Part shown: positions 2,520 through 63,710 of the stretch, piece after piece
Numbering within the stretch: position 1 is the stretch's first letter
Layout: each line of letters starts with the position of its first letter
Sequence record: OL960577.1
DNA: 64,000 nucleotides
From: Escherichia phage vB_EcoM_SA35RD
Reading direction: 5' to 3' (one strand)
Program-made: the position numbers and the translations under genes
The notes under the pieces: model-generated
Told to the model about the DNA's origin: nothing
The model's database searches: none
Seen by the model: the letters and a program-made list of their open reading frames with translations, nothing else

Positions 2520-3620
2520 TTACGCTGTGAAGATTTTATCCCACATCGCAACAACTGCATCTCGGTTATACTTCTTCCATACTGCTTCAGCACGTTTAAC
2601 TCGAGCTTCGTATGTGTCAGTGAATTCTAATACAGCTTTTGTGTAAAGCGCAACTACTTCTTTCTTAGGAGTAGAGGAATCAATTTCTACACGCACAGTA
2701 TCTGGGTCATATTCGAATGTCGCGTGCGGATAATCCTTAAAAACTAACTGAATCACAGGGACACCTTTAGAGATGGCTTCAATAGAACTATTCTCTACCG
2801 TACCCGTGTCAGGACACGTATTGATAAGTGCTTTAGCTGTTTTAAGACGTTCCATGATTTCACTGTGTGGAGCATCAATAATAACAGGATATTTAGCTGG
2901 TGGTGCCCATTTACTAGGACAGTATCCTGCACCATTTTCGCCTAGTGCTTTAATCGCTTCAAGAGCAACATCAGTACGACGCATTTTAGTGTCATAACGT
3001 TGTGCACTAATAATCAGATCAGTCGCCGGAAGAACTTCAGGTTTCTCATTCAAACAAATAACCGGATAATCTTCGGCTTCAAACAACGGATTTGCTCGCC
3101 AATAATCATAATCAATTTTGTCAGTCAGACCTGAAGTCATATAACAATATTTGCGTTCAAATTCACGGAAGGCTTTAGTAGGAGCATAACTCTTACCACC
3201 GTTCTTATGAATTTGAATAGTCTGGTCCCAAATTTGAACAATGCCACGAGATACCGGTTCAAATGGTGTTGCCATAAAATTCTTATGAACTTTAGAGAGA
3301 CCTGCGTCTTTAATTGCCTGAACGGTTAGTTTGGTCGGTTCCATAGTAACAACAAAATCGTATTCATGGATGCCGGCTAGTTCAACAATCTTACGAGCCA
3401 TAGTATAACTCATACCTAGACTGAATTTAGTCAGATGACCAACAGGATGATGATTAACCTTCCAGTCACCAAACGTGTCATTATCAAAGCCGATATAATC
3501 AATATCAGCACCGATGGACACAAGATATTTCAATACATTTAAATGTACTGCTTCAAGACCACCTTGTACACGTTCTGGGTTAAATGGGACTGCGCGAGAT
3601 GGGATAAACATAACTTTCAT
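2520..3620 (-). CDS. GT-B fold glycosyltransferase, candidate DNA hmC arabinosyltransferase
   Basis: 366 aa; N-terminal MKVMFIPS...GGLE and C-terminal GTVENSSIEAISKGVPVI resemble GT1/GT4 motifs; occupies the gene 60/mobA slot of T4. Confidence 0.55.
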   Translation of the reverse strand: MKVMFIPSRAVPFNPERVQGGLEAVHLNVLKYLVSIGADIDYIGFDNDTFGDWKVNHHPVGHLTKFSLGMSYTMARKIVELAGIHEYDFVVTMEPTKLTVQAIKDAGLSKVHKNFMATPFEPVSRGIVQIWDQTIQIHKNGGKSYAPTKAFREFERKYCYMTSGLTDKIDYDYWRANPLFEAEDYPVICLNEKPEVLPATDLIISAQRYDTKMRRTDVALEAIKALGENGAGYCPSKWAPPAKYPVIIDAPHSEIMERLKTAKALINTCPDTGTVENSSIEAISKGVPVIQLVFKDYPHATFEYDPDTVRVEIDSSTPKKEVVALYTKAVLEFTDTYEARVKRAEAVWKKYNRDAVVAMWDKIFTA

Positions 3621-3631
3621 AATTAAGCCTT

Positions 3632-3664
3632 ATTAAAATTAAAATGAAGCTCCCGAAGGAGCTT
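3632..3664 (-). terminator. stem-loop with UUCG tetraloop followed by U-rich tract
   Basis: Plus strand AAGCTCC-CGAA-GGAGCTT preceded by A-run, just after topoisomerase stop. Confidence 0.45.
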
Positions 3665-5480
3665 AGGACATCCATTCTTTACGAAGTTCTGAATCATCAC
3701 CCATCAGCATTTCAAAGAGTTCTTTCCAATTTTCAGGAAGTTTAACTACGTCGTACACAGGGTTCTGAATCATTTCACGATACTCTGACTTTTCAAGGGA
3801 GCCCAATCCCTTGATGTATCGAATACTATGCTTAGGCAGTGTATCTTTAACTTCTTCATACTCAGCTACAGTATAAAACCATTTTTGAGTTTTGCCAATT
3901 TGTGCAATAATTACAGGTGTTTTAACAAAGCGAATACGTCCTTGTTCAAACAATTCAGGCCAATTACTAAAGAAAGCAAGCAAAGCAGGATAAATACTTC
4001 CAAGGCCGTCATGATCGGCATCGGTCATAATTGCAATATTACGATAGTTCGTATTCTCTGCCTTTTCACCAAGAATAAGACCTGTGATAGCACAGATATC
4101 AAAGAGCTCTTTGTTCTTCATCATATCAGCATATGACATACCCCAGCTATTCATCACCTTACCACGTAACGGGAATCCGCCGTGTAGTTCACGGTCACGA
4201 ACATCAATGAGATATCCAATTGCCGAATCACCTTCTGTTAAAAACAATGTCGTATCTGCATCTTTACCACATTGGTTAGCTTTAATATGCTTATGAACCT
4301 TAGCTTTAGTTGCCTTTTTAGCTGCTTTAGTTTCTGCAGCCTTTTCTGCCGCCAATTTACGAGCTAATGCTGCTTCAACAATAGGCATAATCAAGGCTTC
4401 ATTTTTAAGAAGTGCCTGAGCAATTTTCTTAGCATCTAATTGGATATGATTACGAATATCACCATACGTTGACGTTAAACGTTCTTTAGTCTGAGAATCA
4501 AAACGCATGTTGCTCATGTCTCTAATAAACATCAACATTGTGAGACATTCTTTAACACGAGCTTTAGTGACTTCAATACCATTATATTTCTTTTTAATGC
4601 CGGGCAAAAGATGTTCGCAGATATCATCCATTACACATTCAACATGATGACCACCATTTTTAGTATGGATGTTATTCACATAAGTTAAATGACGGAAGCC
4701 GTCTGGTGATGTTGTGAATGCTATAGAGACTTTATCATTTTCTTGAATGATATTATCTTCACCAAATTGTTTAGCAAATCGTTTAAAATTACCATCAACC
4801 TTTTTACCATTAAATGTGAACTTGATATCAGGATAAACGACTGCCAATGTTTGAAGTCGGTCTAAAGTAATATCTAAATAAATTTGAGATAAATTATGCT
4901 CTTCAAATGAAGAGAAATCAGGAGTGAAGATTACTTTAGTGCCTTTACCTTTAGATTTCTTAGAAGACCATGATTTGTTTTCCATTCCGTTTGAACAGTT
5001 AACAGTGATTTCATTTTCGCCATCTGACGTGATGCCTGTAAACAACGTAGAGAAGATATTAGTTAAACTACTTCCGACGCCGTTCATACCACCAGTCTTG
5101 CGTTCAGAATCATCACCAAAGTTACCACCAGCCTTTGGAATAGTCCAGGCTGCTACAGGACCAGGAATTTGTTCACCTGTTTGGTCGGTAACTAAACCTT
5201 GAGGAATACCACGTCCGTTATCTTCCACCGAAACTTGGTTATTTTTAATTTGCACATCAATTTTATTTGCAAACTTAAATGATGTACGAATAGCTTCATC
5301 AACCGAGTTGTCAATAATCTCATCGATTAATTTAACCAGACCAGGAACATATTCAACTTGTTGATATTTACCAAACAAAAAACGCTCGTGGGCTTCTTTA
5401 GCAGAAGAACCAATATACATACCACTGCGTTTCTTAATATGTTCTACATCTGACAATACCTTAATTTCATTTTTAATCAT
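3663..5480 (-). CDS. 39: DNA topoisomerase II large subunit, fused gp60+gp39 (GyrB-like ATPase)
   Basis: 605 aa single ORF, longer than T4 gp39 (516 aa), consistent with gene 60 and 39 fused; synteny. Confidence 0.75.
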   Translation of the reverse strand: MIKNEIKVLSDVEHIKKRSGMYIGSSAKEAHERFLFGKYQQVEYVPGLVKLIDEIIDNSVDEAIRTSFKFANKIDVQIKNNQVSVEDNGRGIPQGLVTDQTGEQIPGPVAAWTIPKAGGNFGDDSERKTGGMNGVGSSLTNIFSTLFTGITSDGENEITVNCSNGMENKSWSSKKSKGKGTKVIFTPDFSSFEEHNLSQIYLDITLDRLQTLAVVYPDIKFTFNGKKVDGNFKRFAKQFGEDNIIQENDKVSIAFTTSPDGFRHLTYVNNIHTKNGGHHVECVMDDICEHLLPGIKKKYNGIEVTKARVKECLTMLMFIRDMSNMRFDSQTKERLTSTYGDIRNHIQLDAKKIAQALLKNEALIMPIVEAALARKLAAEKAAETKAAKKATKAKVHKHIKANQCGKDADTTLFLTEGDSAIGYLIDVRDRELHGGFPLRGKVMNSWGMSYADMMKNKELFDICAITGLILGEKAENTNYRNIAIMTDADHDGLGSIYPALLAFFSNWPELFEQGRIRFVKTPVIIAQIGKTQKWFYTVAEYEEVKDTLPKHSIRYIKGLGSLEKSEYREMIQNPVYDVVKLPENWKELFEMLMGDDSELRKEWMS

Positions 5481-12152: not shown

Positions 12153-12761
12153 TCAGTAACTGACAATAGACAGATTCCAGATTGTATAACGTCCATCCTG
12201 AATAATAGAATCTACACGCAGTGTAGTCCCTATAGGGAGCATAAATTCACATTCGTCAGATATAAGTCTAGCATTAGACCGTCTTGTCGCTTCAGGGAAA
12301 GCTCCATTGAACTCACAAGATGGCGCAGCCAGAATCATGTTAAGCATATGTTCACGGAAGTTGAAAGCAAATGGTGCATCTTTGATGCAGAACATATTAA
12401 ATGTTCCGTAAAAATTATACGAAGCAAAGTTACGTGCTACACCGAACACTGGGCTGAAGCTCATTACTCTGTCAAATTTAATAATACTACCAATACCTTT
12501 ATCATCGAGTGTGGCCATAGTTTTCTTAGAGATTCCACGATACATTGTCTCAGGAACAGAAGACGTCCAATTTCTACGAACGATTGAACTTAACTCCTGT
12601 TGAATACAGTCTGGCTTGTTTTCCATACACTGCCATAGTACACTTTGTTCAATGTCGCTGAATTGACTATCAATTTCGTACTGCAATACATCTTGATATT
12701 CGGGGTTTTGAGCACGACGAACCATTTCTTCAATTTCACACTCGTTATACGGCATAAACAT
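12153..12761 (-). CDS. modA: ADP-ribosyltransferase ModA-like
   Basis: 202 aa; paralogous to next ORF; R (YRGIS) and S-x-S style ART motifs; T4 synteny. Confidence 0.6.
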   Translation of the reverse strand: MFMPYNECEIEEMVRRAQNPEYQDVLQYEIDSQFSDIEQSVLWQCMENKPDCIQQELSSIVRRNWTSSVPETMYRGISKKTMATLDDKGIGSIIKFDRVMSFSPVFGVARNFASYNFYGTFNMFCIKDAPFAFNFREHMLNMILAAPSCEFNGAFPEATRRSNARLISDECEFMLPIGTTLRVDSIIQDGRYTIWNLSIVSY

Positions 12762-12819: not shown

Positions 12820-13400
12820 TAAAAATTCAACATCTTTAAGTGAATGATTTTGTATACTCGAGACAAAGGGTCATACTCTAACTCTTCGATTTCCACAATC
12901 TCAAATCTAGAGATACCTGAAACCATGTACTCTTGTTCAGATTCAATCATATCTAGGACGTCAACACGTGTTTCTTCCATAACATGCTTAGGGTTCTTTC
13001 CGGCGAGTACAATGTTAACCATGTTTTGGTAGTAATCAAAAATGAATGGAGCATTCCTGAGACTAAGAATAGTGTACGTCTGATATTCCCAACTCCCAGA
13101 GAATTGACGAGCTGTGCTGAAATCAGTTGTGAACGATGTTACTCGTCCAGGAGACCAATGGCATCCAACAGAAAGAAGGGAAAGACGTTCTACTTCTTCT
13201 GGAGTTACACCACGGTAGAGTTCTACTGGTACTGTAGAAGTCATATGCTTACGAACAAGATGGTCTAATTCATAGTGGAAATCCGGGTCTTCCTTAGAAT
13301 CGGTGCAAGCCCAGAGAATGTTTTGTTCTTGGCGGGTGAATTTGCTATCAATCAGATTTGTTAGGTATTCGCGTTCTTGAAGTTCAGATTGACATGTCAT
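12819..13400 (-). CDS. modB: ADP-ribosyltransferase ModB-like
   Basis: 193 aa; paralog of ModA-like ORF (YRGVT, FTTDFSTARQF); synteny. Confidence 0.6.
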   Translation of the reverse strand: MTCQSELQEREYLTNLIDSKFTRQEQNILWACTDSKEDPDFHYELDHLVRKHMTSTVPVELYRGVTPEEVERLSLLSVGCHWSPGRVTSFTTDFSTARQFSGSWEYQTYTILSLRNAPFIFDYYQNMVNIVLAGKNPKHVMEETRVDVLDMIESEQEYMVSGISRFEIVEIEELEYDPLSRVYKIIHLKMLNF

Positions 13401-17793: not shown

Positions 17794-18453
17794 TTAACCT
17801 CGATTCATAAATGCATTAAATATTTGGTCATCAACAGAAATTTCTAATTCGACTTCAATTGTTTCAGCCTTTTCTTCAGGTGGTAATTCGTATCCACACA
17901 CTACAATTTTTTCATCGATATCAAAATATACAGAAGCAATACGATTAATGTTACTTTCAGTTAAGTCTAAATCAACATCAACATCTTTTTGACCTACACT
18001 TAAAGGATAACTAATACGAGTTATTTTATTATCTTTAACAAAGAGTCCACCAACATACTCTGTACTACGTTTGAAGTTTACACGTTTCCGAATTGAAAGA
18101 TATGATACATCTTTACCGTGAGCTCGGCTCATAGGACATAATGAATAACTAGAATAAGAGATGTCAAATCCTACGCCTTCAACATGTGCTAGAGTATCAT
18201 GAGTAAACCAATTATAGTCGTATGCTAAATCCATTATATTGTAATATGTGAAAGGCACAGGATTAACATCATATGTTGTACCTTTAAAATCTGCCCAGGC
18301 AACGATTTCGTTATCTTTAACAATTACAAAAATTACACCAATATGGTACCCGTTATTATTTTCATTCGGCGTTATATTATAACATTGTGCATTAGGAAAT
18401 TTACCATATTTAAACGGCGCGTTTTTGTGCATATAATAAATCATATTATTCAC
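17794..18453 (-). CDS. hypothetical protein (61.2 position)
   Basis: 219 aa ORF. Confidence 0.5.
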   Translation of the reverse strand: MNNMIYYMHKNAPFKYGKFPNAQCYNITPNENNNGYHIGVIFVIVKDNEIVAWADFKGTTYDVNPVPFTYYNIMDLAYDYNWFTHDTLAHVEGVGFDISYSSYSLCPMSRAHGKDVSYLSIRKRVNFKRSTEYVGGLFVKDNKITRISYPLSVGQKDVDVDLDLTESNINRIASVYFDIDEKIVVCGYELPPEEKAETIEVELEISVDDQIFNAFMNRG

Positions 18454-58189: not shown

Positions 58190-58492
58190 TTAGATAGATG
58201 TAGGCTCTAATTTTATTTTCATGAACTCGGCAAATTGTCTGGCAGTTTTTATGCCTTGTTCATGGCATTCAAATGCATCATCACAGGGGCTATTTTTGTA
58301 ATGCTTTGCCATATACTTATAGAATTTTTCAGAATTCTCGACATTTTGAATTTCAAACAAAGTATATACGTTTTTAATCCCTGATTCCATAAAGTTATCA
58401 AAATATGGGTCGGTGTACGCAGTACCAACGATAGGAGTTGTTGCTGCAAAAAACCCCAGCATCGCCATGACAGCTATCGCTCTTAAGGCCAT
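58190..58492 (-). CDS. rI: rI-like lysis-inhibition protein
   Basis: 100 aa, signal-anchor N-terminus, position just upstream of tk as T4 rI; sequence similarity not verified. Confidence 0.4.
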   Translation of the reverse strand: MALRAIAVMAMLGFFAATTPIVGTAYTDPYFDNFMESGIKNVYTLFEIQNVENSEKFYKYMAKHYKNSPCDDAFECHEQGIKTARQFAEFMKIKLEPTSI

Positions 58493-58504
58493 ATAGGCCT
58501 CCTG

Positions 58505-58717
58505 TTAATTTTGACCAGTATTTATTTTTCGCCTTTGGACGGCCTTAACATCTGTGAGGTATTTTTCCAGCTTGCGCTTGCGTGTATAATCAGCTTTAGA
58601 ACCAGTTTGACGGATATCCTCGTTTAAATGAGAAATAGAATGTCCTAATTCTCTTCGGATTTCATCCAATTGGGTTACAGTAAGATTACGAAGTTGTCTT
58701 TCGTTTAATTGCTGCAT
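58505..58717 (-). CDS. hypothetical protein
   Basis: 70 aa ORF. Confidence 0.4.
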
Positions 58718-58744
58718 ATATACCTCTTGGTTAGATATTAGTAT

Positions 58745-59326
58745 TTATAACAACCCTGTCAAATCATTCCAATGCTTCCGGCATAATGACACGTATCTAT
58801 CGGTATCACCAATTTCAATTTGACTGCCATCTGTAATTGGAAGTCCGTCTTCCGTGACTCTAGCTACCATTGTGGCCTTTTTACCACAATGACAGACACC
58901 TTTAAGTTCAACAAGCTTATCGGCAATAGCCATTAATGCTTGAGAACCTTCAAATAGATTACCTTTAAAATCTGTTCGTAGTCCATATGCCATTACCGGC
59001 ACATTGTATACGTCAACAATACGACTAAGTTGATACACCTTTTCAGTAGTTAAGAACTGAGCTTCGTCAACAAATACACAATGAATATCCTTTTGTGCTG
59101 CAGCCCATTTATAGAATTCAAAGATATCCATGTCTTTTGTAATTATATTGGCATCCTGACGAATACCAATACGAGAGACTATTTCACCTTTTGAATCGCG
59201 AGTATCAATAGCCGGTTTAAGAACTAATACACCCATGCCACGTTCTTTATAGTTGTGTGCGGCAGTAAGTAATGAAGCAGACTTACCAGCGTTCATAGCG
59301 GCATATGTAAAAATTAAACTAGCCAT
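58745..59326 (-). CDS. tk: thymidine kinase
   Basis: 193 aa; P-loop AAMNAGKS and C-terminal zinc motif CHCGKKA; T4 synteny. Confidence 0.85.
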   Translation of the reverse strand: MASLIFTYAAMNAGKSASLLTAAHNYKERGMGVLVLKPAIDTRDSKGEIVSRIGIRQDANIITKDMDIFEFYKWAAAQKDIHCVFVDEAQFLTTEKVYQLSRIVDVYNVPVMAYGLRTDFKGNLFEGSQALMAIADKLVELKGVCHCGKKATMVARVTEDGLPITDGSQIEIGDTDRYVSLCRKHWNDLTGLL

Positions 59327-59335
59327 AAGAGTCCC

Positions 59336-59518
59336 TTATAGTGAATTCACGTAGTCAATGAGTTCTTGTTCTTTCCTGTCAAATGATTCCATCAATGCGT
59401 GATATTCTTCATCTGTTAAAGGAGCATATTCATCGTACGCATTGGTGGCTGCTTGTTCATCCAATAGGTCATGGATAAGTTCGAACAGTTTAGCTTTCTC
59501 TTCTTTAGTTAATTTCAT
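59336..59518 (-). CDS. hypothetical protein
   Basis: 60 aa ORF. Confidence 0.35.
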   Translation of the reverse strand: MKLTKEEKAKLFELIHDLLDEQAATNAYDEYAPLTDEEYHALMESFDRKEQELIDYVNSL

Positions 59519-59742
59519 TTAGGTTCACCTTCTTTAACGAAATCTGGGTAAGGGTAAAATCCTGAGTAAAACCCTTCACCTTTATGATTGCTACAACCTT
59601 TGTTCGAACAGTAACACCAATAATCAAAATCACAAGCCATTTCGTCATTGCATAAAGCAAAAACTACAGGCCATTCGCATTTTTCGCATTTAGCACCTGT
59701 AAGAATTTTTGTTTGACTCATAGCCATGTCACCTTTAAGCAA
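59515..59742 (-). CDS. Cys-rich small protein
   Basis: 75 aa; CEKCEW...CNDEMACDFDYWCYCSNKGCSNH. Confidence 0.4.
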   Translation of the reverse strand: MLKGDMAMSQTKILTGAKCEKCEWPVVFALCNDEMACDFDYWCYCSNKGCSNHKGEGFYSGFYPYPDFVKEGEPK

Positions 59743-59945
59743 TATTCTTCTACATGTTGTTTACGGCCTTTCTTATCAATAAAGGTATATTCAACGAATG
59801 TTCCGATGTAGTCTTTATCTACATCATGTGGACTATTAATTGGGCATTTGGTACGACAAATGCGTTCCCATTGACGAATAATTACTGCCTTATTCTTTGG
59901 GTCATATGGATGTGGATAATGTATATTCATAATAACGGTTCCCAA
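59718..59945 (-). CDS. hypothetical protein
   Basis: 75 aa ORF. Confidence 0.35.
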   Translation of the reverse strand: MGTVIMNIHYPHPYDPKNKAVIIRQWERICRTKCPINSPHDVDKDYIGTFVEYTFIDKKGRKQHVEEYCLKVTWL

Positions 59946-60424
59946 TCAACAATCACAATTTCTAGTTTAGTAGAATACGTATCTAAAATCTCTTCGATGA
60001 CATCCCAGTTTCCACCACCAATACCTGCACCAATTCTTGGCATATAAATTACAGGCTTTATTATCTTATTCTTTCCGAATTCATTTAATTCTATTATACA
60101 ATTCATTAAAGCATAGTACTCAAAATTAGGTCCCGGCTCAAACTGTGTATAAAGATTAAAGCAATAAGCTTTATGGGTCTTAAAATATTTTTCATAAACC
60201 GAATAAGTCCCGAGTTTAGACTCGTCTCCGAATTCGGTTTGAAGTTTATCGGCTTCCAGAATTTTTGGATAAGCCTTTGCTAATTGTCCTGCCACACCGG
60301 CGCCCATTGTATGAAAACAATTACACCCATGAGCAATATTATTACCTTTAGAAAACAGGGCGACAATATCGCCCTTGATGTAGTTTTTAATCACTTGCTG
60401 CAAGTCCTCTATTATAAGAGTCAA
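59927..60424 (-). CDS. macro domain protein (ADP-ribose binding/processing)
   Basis: 165 aa; GCNCFHTMGAGVAGQ and RIGAGIGGGNW motifs typical of macro domains. Confidence 0.55.
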   Translation of the reverse strand: MTLIIEDLQQVIKNYIKGDIVALFSKGNNIAHGCNCFHTMGAGVAGQLAKAYPKILEADKLQTEFGDESKLGTYSVYEKYFKTHKAYCFNLYTQFEPGPNFEYYALMNCIIELNEFGKNKIIKPVIYMPRIGAGIGGGNWDVIEEILDTYSTKLEIVIVDWEPLL

Positions 60425-60734
60425 CTAGACGGTCCACCATAGAATTGCATGCTGCCTTATCTTTAGGTTCCGCCACCGAGCATTCTAATATTTGCCATTT
60501 TTTATAGTATCTTTTAATTAAGGTAGACGCCTTGAACCTACTAGACGCCCCATCTTTTTCTCCGTCTTTATACGCGTATAACAATTTTTGTGAAAAATCT
60601 ACTTTACACTCTTGACTTTTACCACAATAATCAGACGCCGTTCTGTTTGTATACTCCGTTACATCAGTATATGTAGTATTAGCAAGAGCGTTAAATGAAA
60701 CCAAGCTAACTATTAAAGCCAACATTTTGGTCAT
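60387..60734 (-). CDS. vs: Vs-like protein, secreted
   Basis: 115 aa, same length and position as T4 vs; N-terminal signal peptide. Confidence 0.4.
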   Translation of the reverse strand: MTKMLALIVSLVSFNALANTTYTDVTEYTNRTASDYCGKSQECKVDFSQKLLYAYKDGEKDGASSRFKASTLIKRYYKKWQILECSVAEPKDKAACNSMVDRLVDSYNRGLAASD

Positions 60735-61273
60735 TCTTTTATTTCCAGTAGTTTATTTGATTTAAGGTAATTAGCCTTTTCTAGGACTTCAGAAGCATAT
60801 TTACTTCCAGCACTTGTCTTCCATCCCGCATTATATGAGGATATAGCTTTTCTTATATCCCCGTTATGTATATTTAACCAATAAGAAAATTCGATATAAG
60901 CCCATCTGGCTGAATTAGACCGCTTAGATAGCATTTTCTTAATTTGGGCATCAGTCATATTATAACCAAGCTGGTTAATTCTTGCCCTCATTGTTGGTAG
61001 ATAATTTTGGAACATTCCATACGCATGGTGACCTTTCTTATCTTTAAGATTAATACCGGCAGATGATTCTTGCCATAGTATTGCGGCCATTATGTATCCA
61101 AGTCCTTTCTTATGCATATTTTCATGCGTTTTAAATTTTCCGTCCTTAGAAAACTGTTCCCCAAACTGATAAGCATAATTCAAGTTATCGAGTTGGACAT
61201 TACTAAAAGTATGCTCGGAGCTATGTGCTGATAATGAAAGAGCAAATAGACCAGCGAGTAGTGCTTTTCTCAT
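60731..61273 (-). CDS. lytic transglycosylase-like periplasmic protein
   Basis: 180 aa; signal peptide; LWQESSAG...YGMFQ...SYNAG resembles Slt catalytic motifs. Confidence 0.55.
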   Translation of the reverse strand: MRKALLAGLFALSLSAHSSEHTFSNVQLDNLNYAYQFGEQFSKDGKFKTHENMHKKGLGYIMAAILWQESSAGINLKDKKGHHAYGMFQNYLPTMRARINQLGYNMTDAQIKKMLSKRSNSARWAYIEFSYWLNIHNGDIRKAISSYNAGWKTSAGSKYASEVLEKANYLKSNKLLEIKE

Positions 61274-61281
61274 GTTTACCT

Positions 61282-61740
61282 CTAGATTTTAATCACTGCT
61301 TTAGAAGCTTTTCCTGGTAGTCGTTTACTGTTAATAATAGCCATTCTACATTGAAGAGTCTTCATTTTGAATGTCGGATTTTCGCGACAAACTGTAAGTC
61401 CTAACCAAAGATTTCCGTCAGTTATTTCTAAACGGCCTGGACGATACTCGACACCTTCGACAAAATCTTCATCAACATCTGGACGTGCCGGCATTGATAA
61501 AAATTCTGCAACTTCTTTAACGTGATTTTTTACTTTATGAAATAATTCAAAAACGTAATTCTCATCTATTTCTCTCTGGATGGCACGATCTAAGAGATGT
61601 TGAGAATACTTGATATGAAAGCCTGGTAGTCCAAGAGACTTTGCAGCATCTTTTATACCGGCATTTATTTTGCGGAACTCCGTTTCAAAGATTCGACGGA
61701 GTTTATTACGACGGATAAAAACGTCTGAATTGATAGTCAT
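61282..61740 (-). CDS. regB: RegB site-specific endoribonuclease
   Basis: 152 aa; KYSQHLLDRAIQREIDE...RPGRLEITDGNLWLG matches remembered T4 RegB; synteny. Confidence 0.7.
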   Translation of the reverse strand: MTINSDVFIRRNKLRRIFETEFRKINAGIKDAAKSLGLPGFHIKYSQHLLDRAIQREIDENYVFELFHKVKNHVKEVAEFLSMPARPDVDEDFVEGVEYRPGRLEITDGNLWLGLTVCRENPTFKMKTLQCRMAIINSKRLPGKASKAVIKI

Positions 61741-61768
61741 TTTGATTTCTCCTCTAGTTGACAGGTCT

Positions 61769-61797
61769 ATAGTAACACAACTAGAGGAGAAGTAAAC
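61769..61797 (-). promoter_or_regulatory. T4-type early promoter-like element upstream of regB with RBS-pairing spacer
   Basis: GTTTAC-17nt-TACTAT; 14-bp inverted repeat TTCTCCTCTAGTTG / CAACTAGAGGAGAA spans promoter and SD. Confidence 0.45.
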
Positions 61798-61801
61798 TAC
61801 T

Positions 61802-62059
61802 TTATTGATAAAATGGAGTTAAAGCCCAAGATTCTTTAGATACTATATTGGCGAAATGCCTCATCTCTTCGATTTGGCGACGACGTTGGTCAGCATAGTC
61901 TTCTTCGCCTTCTTCCTTACAATCTTCAAGGTCTTCTTCAAGATACTTTAAGTATTCACTACAAATTTTGTTGACCTTTTCTTGGAAGTCCAATAACCCA
62001 GTAATAGTAGAAGCCATTAGTATTTTTCCTCGGGTCGAAATACTGCACGACATGCCCAC
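61802..62059 (-). CDS. hypothetical protein
   Basis: 85 aa ORF. Confidence 0.4.
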   Translation of the reverse strand: MGMSCSISTRGKILMASTITGLLDFQEKVNKICSEYLKYLEEDLEDCKEEGEEDYADQRRRQIEEMRHFANIVSKESWALTPFYQ

Positions 62060-62283
62060 ATGCTGGCTTCTTTTAGATGTTGCTTAGCATACTTAAGAGC
62101 CTGCACTGCATCCATATCTTCTTTGGTTTGTTGCTCTGTTTCATTTTCTTTCAAGATATATGCTTCTTCAATCAGAGCATCAAACATCAATCCAAGACGG
62201 ACTTCTGCATCTTTAATAGCGTTCACTTTACTGATTTTATCATCGGTATGCGGTTTGTAGCCTTTGATGTCTTCAATCGACAT
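62017..62283 (-). CDS. hypothetical protein
   Basis: Start moved to MSIEDIKGYK; longer ORF would overlap upstream gene. Confidence 0.35.
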   Translation of the reverse strand: MSIEDIKGYKPHTDDKISKVNAIKDAEVRLGLMFDALIEEAYILKENETEQQTKEDMDAVQALKYAKQHLKEASMWACRAVFRPEEKY

Positions 62284-62497
62284 AAGGAATTTCCTCATCG
62301 GTGGCAAGGTCATATTCGACCAATTGGATAGGCTCATTAATACCATATCCACGTACAGTGATATCAGTTGTCGGATAGTTTCCAGTAATATCACCCATTC
62401 TAAATGCTTCAGTGAATGATTGCTCGCCTGAGCAACTAAACCAGGCGGCAAAACATTTTAAAACATCTTCAGACCCGTCTATAATCAATTTAGCCAT
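62273..62497 (-). CDS. hypothetical protein
   Basis: 74 aa ORF. Confidence 0.4.
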   Translation of the reverse strand: MAKLIIDGSEDVLKCFAAWFSCSGEQSFTEAFRMGDITGNYPTTDITVRGYGINEPIQLVEYDLATDEEIPYVD

Positions 62498-62859
62498 TAT
62501 AGACTCTCAGTAAAGGTACGAGCGATAACGTCGCGCTGCTGTTCTGGAGTCAGAGAGTTAAAGCGAACTGCATAACCGGATACACGAATGGTCAGCTGAG
62601 GATATTTTTCCGGATGCTTAACTGCATCTTCCAGAGTTTCACGACGCAGAACGTTAACGTTCAGGTGTTGACCACCTTCAATTTTAACTTTAGGTTGATG
62701 TTCAATTTCAATTTCACGGGCGTTAAGACCGTAGAAAATTTCCGGGTCTACAATAGCGTCTTCTTTAAAAGTCTTAGAGACAATAATCCGGGCTTGAGTA
62801 CAGTCTTCAAAATAAATAGTGCCTTTGTGTGTGCCTTCAAGAATTTGATATGCTTTCAT
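62497..62859 (-). CDS. autonomous glycyl radical cofactor (GrcA/YfiD-like)
   Basis: 120 aa; [26 protein letters not shown] glycyl-radical signature. Confidence 0.6.
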
Positions 62860-62865
62860 ATAACC

Positions 62866-63174
62866 TCAATTAGAAAATAAATTTATCCAAGTTTTTTCTT
62901 TAATCAAAAATGGGTCGGAATTAAACGCCATTAAACTTTGAGTGATTAATCCCTTAAATGGCCCATCAATAAATTCCATTTTGAAATGCGGAATACTAGT
63001 CATCAACCGTGCATTAGGAGCAGTACAAAGAACCTGCTGCCCTGCGAACGGACCTTTAGTCAAACGATATCGTTTAGGTTTAAAATGGTAAATCTCGTAA
63101 TTTTCTACAAGGGCCCTTTTATTGCATACTGGACTGTTATAACAATACTCAAAAACTTCAATAGTGGTCATCAT
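62866..63174 (-). CDS. hypothetical protein
   Basis: 102 aa ORF. Confidence 0.4.
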   Translation of the reverse strand: MMTTIEVFEYCYNSPVCNKRALVENYEIYHFKPKRYRLTKGPFAGQQVLCTAPNARLMTSIPHFKMEFIDGPFKGLITQSLMAFNSDPFLIKEKTWINLFSN

Positions 63175-63710
63175 TGCATTCCAATCACAAAAAATTGAGG
63201 ACGAGCATTACTGCCGATGCAATATTTGCTTTTGCAGCAGTGCTGTACTGTTTTAATGTGGACATTGTAAATCTTATCCATATCAGGAGCTTTAATAGGC
63301 TCGTCAATTATATACAGAATACGAGAAAGCGTTAATCCACGGAATTTAGAACCTTCATTGCCAATAAAACTACGAACAGAATCAGTAAATAAACGGAATC
63401 GAATATCGTCGCTAGAATAACGAGAAAATTCTTTTTCAATGTTGCCAGCAGAAATTTTAGCATAAGCTGAAGTATTAGAAAGAACAATAACCGTTCCACC
63501 ATCATACAGCCAATTAGCAGCAAAGTTAGTCACAGCAATTGATTTACCTGATTGTCGGCCGCCGTCTAAACGAAGTGTACAGTACTGCTTGAGTACGTCT
63601 TCAAATGGTGGGGCATAACCGTTCTTACAAATTTCTTCTACTCTAGCATCAGAATGGTGTGTAAAAGCATTCATCAGGGATAGATAAGGTCCAGTTAAAA
63701 ATGTTCTCAT
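63171..63710 (-). CDS. hypothetical protein, possible P-loop NTPase
   Basis: 179 aa; GGRQSGKS and ILYIIDEP resemble Walker A/B. Confidence 0.4.
   Translation of the reverse strand: MRTFLTGPYLSLMNAFTHHSDARVEEICKNGYAPPFEDVLKQYCTLRLDGGRQSGKSIAVTNFAANWLYDGGTVIVLSNTSAYAKISAGNIEKEFSRYSSDDIRFRLFTDSVRSFIGNEGSKFRGLTLSRILYIIDEPIKAPDMDKIYNVHIKTVQHCCKSKYCIGSNARPQFFVIGMQ

Follow-up and report, generated by a model that had tools for sequence, protein, structure and literature searches.

The tk-vs region of Escherichia phage vB_EcoM_SA35RD (sequence record OL960577.1) raises the question of what a phage does with a small macrodomain protein. In the 64,000-nucleotide stretch of this genome analyzed here (the window), a minus-strand open reading frame at 59927..60424, which encodes 165 amino acids when counted from a TTG codon, contains both GCNCFHTMGAGVAGQ and RIGAGIGGGNW. 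An earlier note, made from the sequence alone, took these motifs as signs of a macro domain protein that binds or hydrolyzes ADP-ribose and proposed that it could tune or reverse the phage's own ADP-ribosylation of host proteins or process ADP-ribose-derived signals. We asked where the gene begins, what family its product belongs to, how its active site is built, and which of several possible roles the evidence favors.

The reading frame and both motifs were borne out, but the span of 59927-60424 given in that note is 30 nt too long at the 5' end. The gene most likely occupies 59927..60394 on the minus strand, with a GTG start at 60394 and a TGA stop, and would encode a protein of 155 amino acids with a single macrodomain and no extra domain. 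We favor this placement because the TTG is not conserved, because the GTG falls exactly in register with the ATG that opens T4 tk.4 and serves as the annotated start in JK45 and other close relatives, because a Shine-Dalgarno-like GAGGA (60405..60409, minus strand) lies 10 nt upstream of the GTG and is conserved in T4 and JK45 (sequence reading and alignment), and because more distant homologs align in tblastn searches only from residue 11 of the 165-amino-acid frame. The TTG start at 60424 was rejected, as T4 has GTA at this position and the in-frame extension that it would initiate (60395..60424, minus strand) falls in the 3'-terminal part of vs. This extension is probably not translated as part of the tk.4 protein.

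Both ends of the gene overlap its neighbors. At the 5' end, the sequence GTGATTAA (60387..60394, minus strand) places the tk.4 start over the stop codon of vs (TAA, 60387-60389). At the 3' end, an ATGA overlap (59927..59930, minus strand) sets the tk.4 stop (TGA, 59927-59929) over the start of tk.3 (ATG, 59928-59930), as read from the sequence and the mapped JK45 annotation. The overlap with the vs stop is thus 8 nt for the window gene, which begins with GTG, and 4 nt for T4 tk.4, which begins with ATG. The overlapping start and stop codons suggest that vs and tk.4 may be translationally coupled, as may genes along the operon. The upstream neighbor, vs (valyl-tRNA synthetase modifier; 60387-60734, minus strand), is reported to be the T4 gene with the strongest depletion when the HIDEN-SEQ screen was run in minimal medium (bioRxiv 10.1101/2025.11.20.689424).

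The surrounding 3.6 kb is 98.5 to 99% identical to many Tequatrovirus genomes, including vB_EcoM-pEB20, APCEc01, and JK45, and the window is from a Tequatrovirus. The gene order, tk-tk.1-tk.2-tk.3-tk.4-vs-vs.1-regB, is that of T4 and JK45. T4 Tk.4 (NP_049723) and the window protein align over their full length without gaps, with 131 of 155 residues identical (85%). Judged by this full-length identity and by its place between vs and tk.3, the gene belongs to the T4 Tk.4 orthologous group and is the syntenic ortholog of T4 tk.4, also named adfM (anti-DarT factor macrodomain). Each consists of one macrodomain and carries every family-invariant residue, and the two differ by 24 substitutions, for example G127 in the window protein and K127 in T4. 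The family is large, since tblastn returned 2,792 phage records with a match to it, from many hosts. Annotation of the family varies. T4 Tk.4 is labeled "phosphatase; contains A1pp phosphatase motif" in RefSeq, and orthologs in other records are called "macro domain protein" or "Poa1p-like family protein." Several other labels in public records appear to be slips: JK45 lists vs.1 as an "endoribonuclease," and in the T4 RefSeq record tk.3 bears the label "Tk.2 conserved hypothetical protein," mobD.4 is described as a molybdopterin biosynthesis protein, and vs.6 goes under the name GrcA.

Profile searches and structure prediction agree that the tk.4 product is a genuine macrodomain. The Pfam Macro profile (PF01661) scores 27.6 bits against a gathering cutoff of 22 (E = 3.1e-6), with residues 32-146 of the frame (165-amino-acid numbering) matched to profile positions 2-117, so that 116 of 118 positions are covered. 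PHROG 335 matches with an E value of 8e-66. Searched against the PDB as a single sequence, the protein matches BT1257 (2e-10), Poa1p, SCO6735, DarG, and TARG1; a profile built from 64 family members matches BT1257 (5e-18), TARG1 (1e-15), SCO6735 (5.5e-15), and the DarG of Mycobacterium tuberculosis (6e-13). An AlphaFold2 model (pLDDT 95.7, pTM 0.91) has, together with the alignment, the three-layer alpha/beta/alpha macrodomain fold with two Gly-rich ADP-ribose-binding loops, in which the MGAG and IGAGxGG sequences are conserved across the family. Among PDB structures, Foldseek ranks TARG1, Poa1p, DarG, BT1257, and SCO6735 highest (probability 1.00, TM 0.69 to 0.81). There were 139 PDB matches with an E value of at most 0.001, and each of the matches listed is either a macrodomain or a serine hydrolase that was designed on the scaffold of one. 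SCO6735, DarG, and TARG1 have been placed in the ALC1-like macrodomain class (PMC9411070), and the tk.4 product is a stand-alone, 155-amino-acid macrodomain of this class. The earlier note, in reading the motifs as a macrodomain for binding or hydrolyzing ADP-ribose, is thus supported by profile, fold, and conserved residues alike; the HMM confirmation that the note suggested came out above the Pfam cutoff, and every family-conserved residue is present in the window protein.

Among 64 homologs, G23, N25, C26, G33, A35, D49, G62, N80, Y82, T83, and Q84 are invariant, as are P119, I121, G122, G124, and W130 in the C-terminal part, and H22, C24, F27, M30, G31, G127, and G128 are nearly so. Most of these positions remain near-invariant when 36 viral and 72 bacterial homologs are aligned as a separate set, and the window protein carries all the invariant and near-invariant family residues. 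The first motif, G23-CNCFHTMGAGVAG-Q37 with H22 just before it (60284..60328, minus strand), is the predicted phosphate- and ribose-binding loop. Within it, N25 aligns with N23 of PhiKZ AdfM, where an N23A mutation lowers activity (PMC13309987). The second, R120-IGAGIGGGN-W130 (60005..60037, minus strand), is the second Gly-rich loop, predicted to bind diphosphate.

Between these loops lies the motif N80-L-Y-T-Q84 (60143..60157, minus strand), which puts Q84 at the position of the catalytic lysine in TARG1 (K84), DarG (K80), and PhiKZ AdfM (K77). Alignment of Q84 with TARG1 K84 was obtained with hhalign, with profile-PDB alignments, and with MAFFT L-INS-i; the TARG1 comparison sequence matches the PDB at 334.8 bits over residues 2-152. 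In the profile-PDB alignment, Q84 also falls on the Gln of the BT1257 sequence NMIGQ. Glutamine occupies position 84 in 35 of 36 viral and 72 of 72 bacterial homologs (107 of 108 overall; MAFFT L-INS-i). An hhalign comparison of the family with PhiKZ gp104 places Q84 one column off the PhiKZ lysine, whereas a MAFFT L-INS-i alignment of 110 sequences puts it in line with both PhiKZ K77 and TARG1 K84, and we prefer the latter because the flanking Thr aligns as well. At the position of the catalytic D125 of TARG1, the tk.4 family has Gly or Ala (G126 here, in alignments to TARG1, BT1257, and SCO6735), so the K84/D125 dyad of TARG1 becomes Q84/G126.

A precedent for this arrangement exists in SCO6735, in which Gln85 replaces the DarG/TARG1 lysine and Q85A and Q85E mutants are inactive (PMC9411070). 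Q84 would be the equivalent of this residue by a transitive route, through the alignments to TARG1 and BT1257 and the published structural alignment (PMC9411070); a truncated-query PDB search for a direct alignment of the Gln segment to SCO6735 aligned the C-terminal loop alone. With Gln in place of the lysine of DarG K80 and TARG1 K84, and with no TARG1-type Asp, the active site is predicted to be Gln-type, like those of SCO6735 and BT1257, and not the Lys-type of DarG, TARG1, and PhiKZ AdfM.

Like tk.4, SCO6735 (Streptomyces coelicolor, PDB 5E3B) and BT1257 (Bacteroides, PDB 2FG1/2AFC) are stand-alone proteins, of roughly 150 to 180 amino acids, and they have in common with it the Gln at the Lys position, the lack of a TARG1-type Asp, a PRIGxGLAGGxW loop, and an H-x-x-N motif. 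They differ in being cellular rather than phage proteins, with only about 21 to 27% identity to tk.4, and SCO6735 has in addition a longer mobile loop with Lys89 and Lys94 and is induced by DNA damage. The top fold matches of the model, TARG1/OARD1 (human, PDB 4J5S) and Poa1p (yeast, PDB 6LFR), lack this glutamine. In Poa1p, a characterized ADP-ribose-1''-phosphate phosphatase, the residue opposite Q84 is Ser. Structural work on Poa1p has probed H23, S30, and F152; the His aligns with H22 and the Ser with T29, and the C-terminal segment aligns weakly.

The comparison with DarG, the antitoxin macrodomain that opposes DarT2, bears on where the family came from. DarG was the only match in scans with PADLOC and NCBIfam models, and the window protein scores 34.7 bits (PADLOC) and 31.9 bits (NCBIfam NF048014, cutoff 250), as against 132.9 and 137.8 bits for PhiKZ AdfM on the same models. 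The NF048014 match is limited to positions 4-146 of 338. DarG (Thermus aquaticus, 5M31/5M3E; M. tuberculosis, 5M3I) has the same fold class (TM ~0.75), but it carries a catalytic Lys (K80 in T. aquaticus), has a C-terminal DarT-binding domain, and adjoins darT, whereas the tk.4 protein scores below the cutoff, has Gln and one domain, and is flanked by vs and tk.3 rather than by darT. It therefore falls outside DarG, yet plausibly works like the DarG macrodomain. Because an invariant Gln replaces the Lys and because the DarG models give only 32 to 35 bits as against 133 to 138 for PhiKZ AdfM, T4-type Tk.4 looks like a separate Gln-type lineage and not an orphan DarG.

The surroundings of cellular relatives point the same way. 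Bacterial proteins with 35 to 46% identity occur in many phyla, nearly all of them stand-alone and about 150 amino acids long. A tblastn search of 120 homolog loci with one query, the DarT2 of Pseudomonas aeruginosa 505, returned no match with E < 1, and no DarT was detectable with this query within 4 kb of the bacterial relatives. In five bacterial loci, the neighbors were unrelated (rpoC, tuf, an integrase, and metabolic genes). An origin as an orphan DarG left over from a DarTG operon is thus not supported by this single-query search, and the pattern suggests instead that stand-alone Gln-type macrodomains were recruited. In sequence, the family lies nearest to BT1257 and Poa1p. Since the bacterial homologs stand alone, with varied neighbors and no DarT found nearby, the ancestral role of the family may differ from DarT antagonism.

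Tk.4 relatives are far longer in Acinetobacter phage 133 (tk.4, 245 amino acids) and in Escherichia phage SUSP2 and Erwinia phage vB_Eam-MM7 (260 amino acids), and a Marseillevirus relative of 302 amino acids is annotated as SNF2 subfamily (BFVD matches to the model), which suggests fusions of a Tk.4-type macrodomain with other modules. In Vibrio aestuarianus (locus 2900-4462), a Tk.4-like macrodomain gene lies directly downstream of a gene resembling a tyrosine-recombinase-type integrase (translation read by eye), which suggests carriage on a mobile element.

Evidence for the role of the gene comes from T4. In a HIDEN-SEQ transposon screen under DarTG2, tk.4 alone emerged as a significant hit, a clean knockout became DarTG2 sensitive, and the gene was named adfM; on plain E. 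coli K-12 it was dispensable, its importance being confined to hosts with DarTG2 (bioRxiv 10.1101/2025.11.20.689424). The same preprint proposes removal of ADP-ribose from DNA and says of enzymatic removal that it "seems likely" (bioRxiv 10.1101/2025.11.20.689424). The LeRoux lab had reported that T-even phages resist DarTG2 through a factor other than AdfA and AdfN (PMC11257639). The proposed chemistry has precedents in SCO6735, DarG, TARG1, and PhiKZ AdfM, each of which cleaves ADP-ribose from thymidine in DNA (PMC9411070, PMC12879935, PMC13309987). SCO6735 is very efficient on this substrate and rescues cells from DarT (PMC9411070; PMC12879935), TARG1 also removes it (PMC12879935), and PhiKZ gp104 (AdfM) in vitro frees a TNTC oligonucleotide of the ADP-ribose that DarT2 has added to it (PMC13309987).

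Given the T4 genetics, the 85% identity, the synteny, and the intact residue set, we consider it likely that tk.4 of this phage is a counter-defense gene whose product hydrolyzes DarT2-made thymidine-ADP-ribose on phage single-stranded DNA. The host DarT2 toxin of a DarTG2 system ADP-ribosylates thymidine (at N3) in TNTC motifs of phage single-stranded DNA and thereby blocks replication; in the mechanism that we propose, the phage macrodomain would then bind the ADP-ribose and hydrolyze the N-glycosidic bond, restoring unmodified DNA. Because the active site appears to be of the Gln type and not the Lys type, catalysis would be expected to be water mediated, with Gln positioning the distal ribose. 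The functional support is a single preprint that concerns T4 rather than the phage analyzed here: the DarTG2 function was demonstrated for T4 Tk.4 alone, what is shown for the window protein is its macrodomain identity, fold, orthology, and conserved residue set, and we infer that protection is enzymatic, that thymidine-linked ADP-ribose on DNA is the substrate, and that the T4 result carries over to the SA35RD phage. The window also encodes a homolog of T4 gp61.2 (64% identity; 17797-18444, minus strand), which is AdfA, the anti-DarTG1 factor in RB69 and T4 (PMC11257639). With this homolog in addition to tk.4, it carries at least two putative anti-DarT loci.

Other roles for a phage macrodomain have to be weighed against this one. 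The earlier note had the domain right; its suggestion that the protein tunes or reverses the phage's own ADP-ribosylation, or processes signals, is not the reading best supported in the light of the T4 tk.4-DarTG2 genetics. Its premise that the phage carries ADP-ribosyltransferases holds, as two adjacent Mod-like genes are present in the window (~12162-12755 and ~12888-13343, minus strand), and a macrodomain could in principle erase or tune the ADP-ribosylation, or RNAylation, that such Alt/ModA/ModB-type enzymes install. SCO6735 and TARG1, moreover, act also on Glu/Asp-linked ADP-ribose on protein (PMC9411070). Against such self-regulation, the family spans 2,792 phage records over many hosts, tk.4 lies unlinked to the mod genes, ~47 kb away in the window, and in T4 it matters only where DarTG2 is present. 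The chemistry also fits poorly: Alt, ModA, and ModB are arginine specific, the removal of ADP-ribose from Arg is normally the task of ARH/DraG-type enzymes and not of macrodomains, and macrodomains are not known to cleave Arg-ADP-ribose. We therefore regard self-regulation as highly improbable, and counter-defense is probably the likelier role than regulation of protein ADP-ribosylation by the phage's own Alt/Mod enzymes. The Mod-like proteins themselves are only 30 to 38% identical to T4 ModA/ModB, as against 85% for Tk.4, and by this measure the mod locus is far more divergent from T4 than the tk-regB region.

Hydrolysis of soluble molecules rather than DNA adducts, whether ADP-ribose-1''-phosphate, O-acetyl-ADP-ribose, or TIR/Thoeris-type signals, is what the long-standing labels (A1pp phosphatase motif, phosphatase, Poa1p-like) would imply. 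Poa1p and BT1257 indeed rank among the best matches by sequence and by fold, the Poa1p His that the depositors of entry 6lfs mutated (H23A) lines up with H22, and phage Macro domains have been argued to target mostly low-molecular-weight ADP-ribose derivatives (Iyer et al. 2022). The T4 genetics, however, connect tk.4 with DarTG2 in particular, a system that produces a DNA adduct; Poa1p has Ser and not Gln at the Q84 position (LFTSSFGG versus LYTQFEPG); and SCO6735, a relative of the Gln type, removes ADP-ribose from DNA efficiently (PMC9411070). A Thoeris or other phenotype for tk.4 has not been reported, and in a 2026 preprint on Thoeris and His-ADPR the macrodomain mentions refer to the host ThsA effector, not to phage proteins. 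A small-molecule substrate thus seems improbable. The remaining alternative keeps DarT2 as the target and has the protein protect mainly by binding and blocking the toxin ("interaction-inhibition"), with hydrolysis secondary or absent. Catalytically dead SCO6735 Q85A, DarG K80A, and TARG1 K84A do still inhibit DarT in vitro, and SCO6735 is the strongest inhibitor of the three (PMC9411070). The tk.4 protein, however, is without the C-terminal DarT-binding domain of DarG (155 amino acids, as against 329 to 338 positions in the DarG models), and the predicted ADP-ribose-binding and catalytic residues are all near-invariant in 108 phage and bacterial homologs, including those of bacteria with no DarT found nearby. 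Such strict conservation argues for selection on enzymatic activity and makes protection chiefly by blockade quite improbable.

The 5' part of the gene may also carry a regulatory signal. A terminator-like hairpin, AGGGCGAT-ATT-GTCGCCCT followed by GTTTTCT (60348..60375, minus strand), lies at nt +20 to +47 of the tk.4 coding sequence, the hairpin itself at 60357-60375 (+20 to +38), and the 96-nt stretch around it folds with a z score of -2.2 relative to shuffled sequences. The hairpin is identical in T4, and its stem is kept in two distant viral homologs (41 to 45% amino acid identity), in which both of its sides are altered (GGGAGAT/ATCTCCC and GGGCGAT/ATCGCCC). A group of homologs with 51 to 59% identity lacks the hairpin. 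It may act as an attenuator downstream of vs, or it may simply follow from the G-D-x-x-A/S-L codons. In the record of Yersinia phage fPS-65, a "terminator" is annotated under the tk.4 gene. A promoter scan of 58400-63500 found no excess of promoter-like sites (15, versus 17.3 +/- 3.2 in shuffled sequences).

A broader joint reading would make T4-type AdfM an independent, Gln-type answer to DarT2, recruited from SCO6735/BT1257-like cellular macrodomains and working by a lysine-free, water-mediated mechanism. Like SCO6735, the protein might then have a second activity, either on protein Glu/Asp-ADP-ribose or ADP-ribosylated RNA, which would cross the phage's own Mod/Alt chemistry, or through direct binding of DarT2, and the 5' hairpin may meter expression downstream of vs. 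Taken as a whole, this combination is speculative, and we think it unlikely that all of its parts hold.

The gene and its anti-DarTG2 role are already known: the macrodomain/A1pp annotation dates from the T4 genome annotation, and the DarTG2 role has been reported. Our modest addition is the assignment of T4-type AdfM to a predicted Gln type, SCO6735-like and distinct from the DarG-like AdfM of PhiKZ. PhiKZ gp104 (Cell Rep 2026, PMC13309987) resembles tk.4 in being a phage-encoded, stand-alone macrodomain that counters DarTG2, with the conserved Asn and an MGAG loop, but it is DarG-like, has a P-T-K motif with the Lys, and is imported into the phage nucleus (PMC13309987). An hhalign comparison of it with the Tk.4 family gives 96% probability and 20% identity, and the two proteins named AdfM, in T4 and in PhiKZ, look like separate recruitments. 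For annotation, the window gene can be labeled adfM/tk.4, with its GTG start at 60394, and a Gln-type site predicts that Q84A and N25A would abolish protection. Because T4-type AdfM matches the Gln type of SCO6735 and the PhiKZ "AdfM" is DarG-like, the comparison suggests that this one defense has been countered in two unrelated phage groups by recruiting different lineages of macrodomain.
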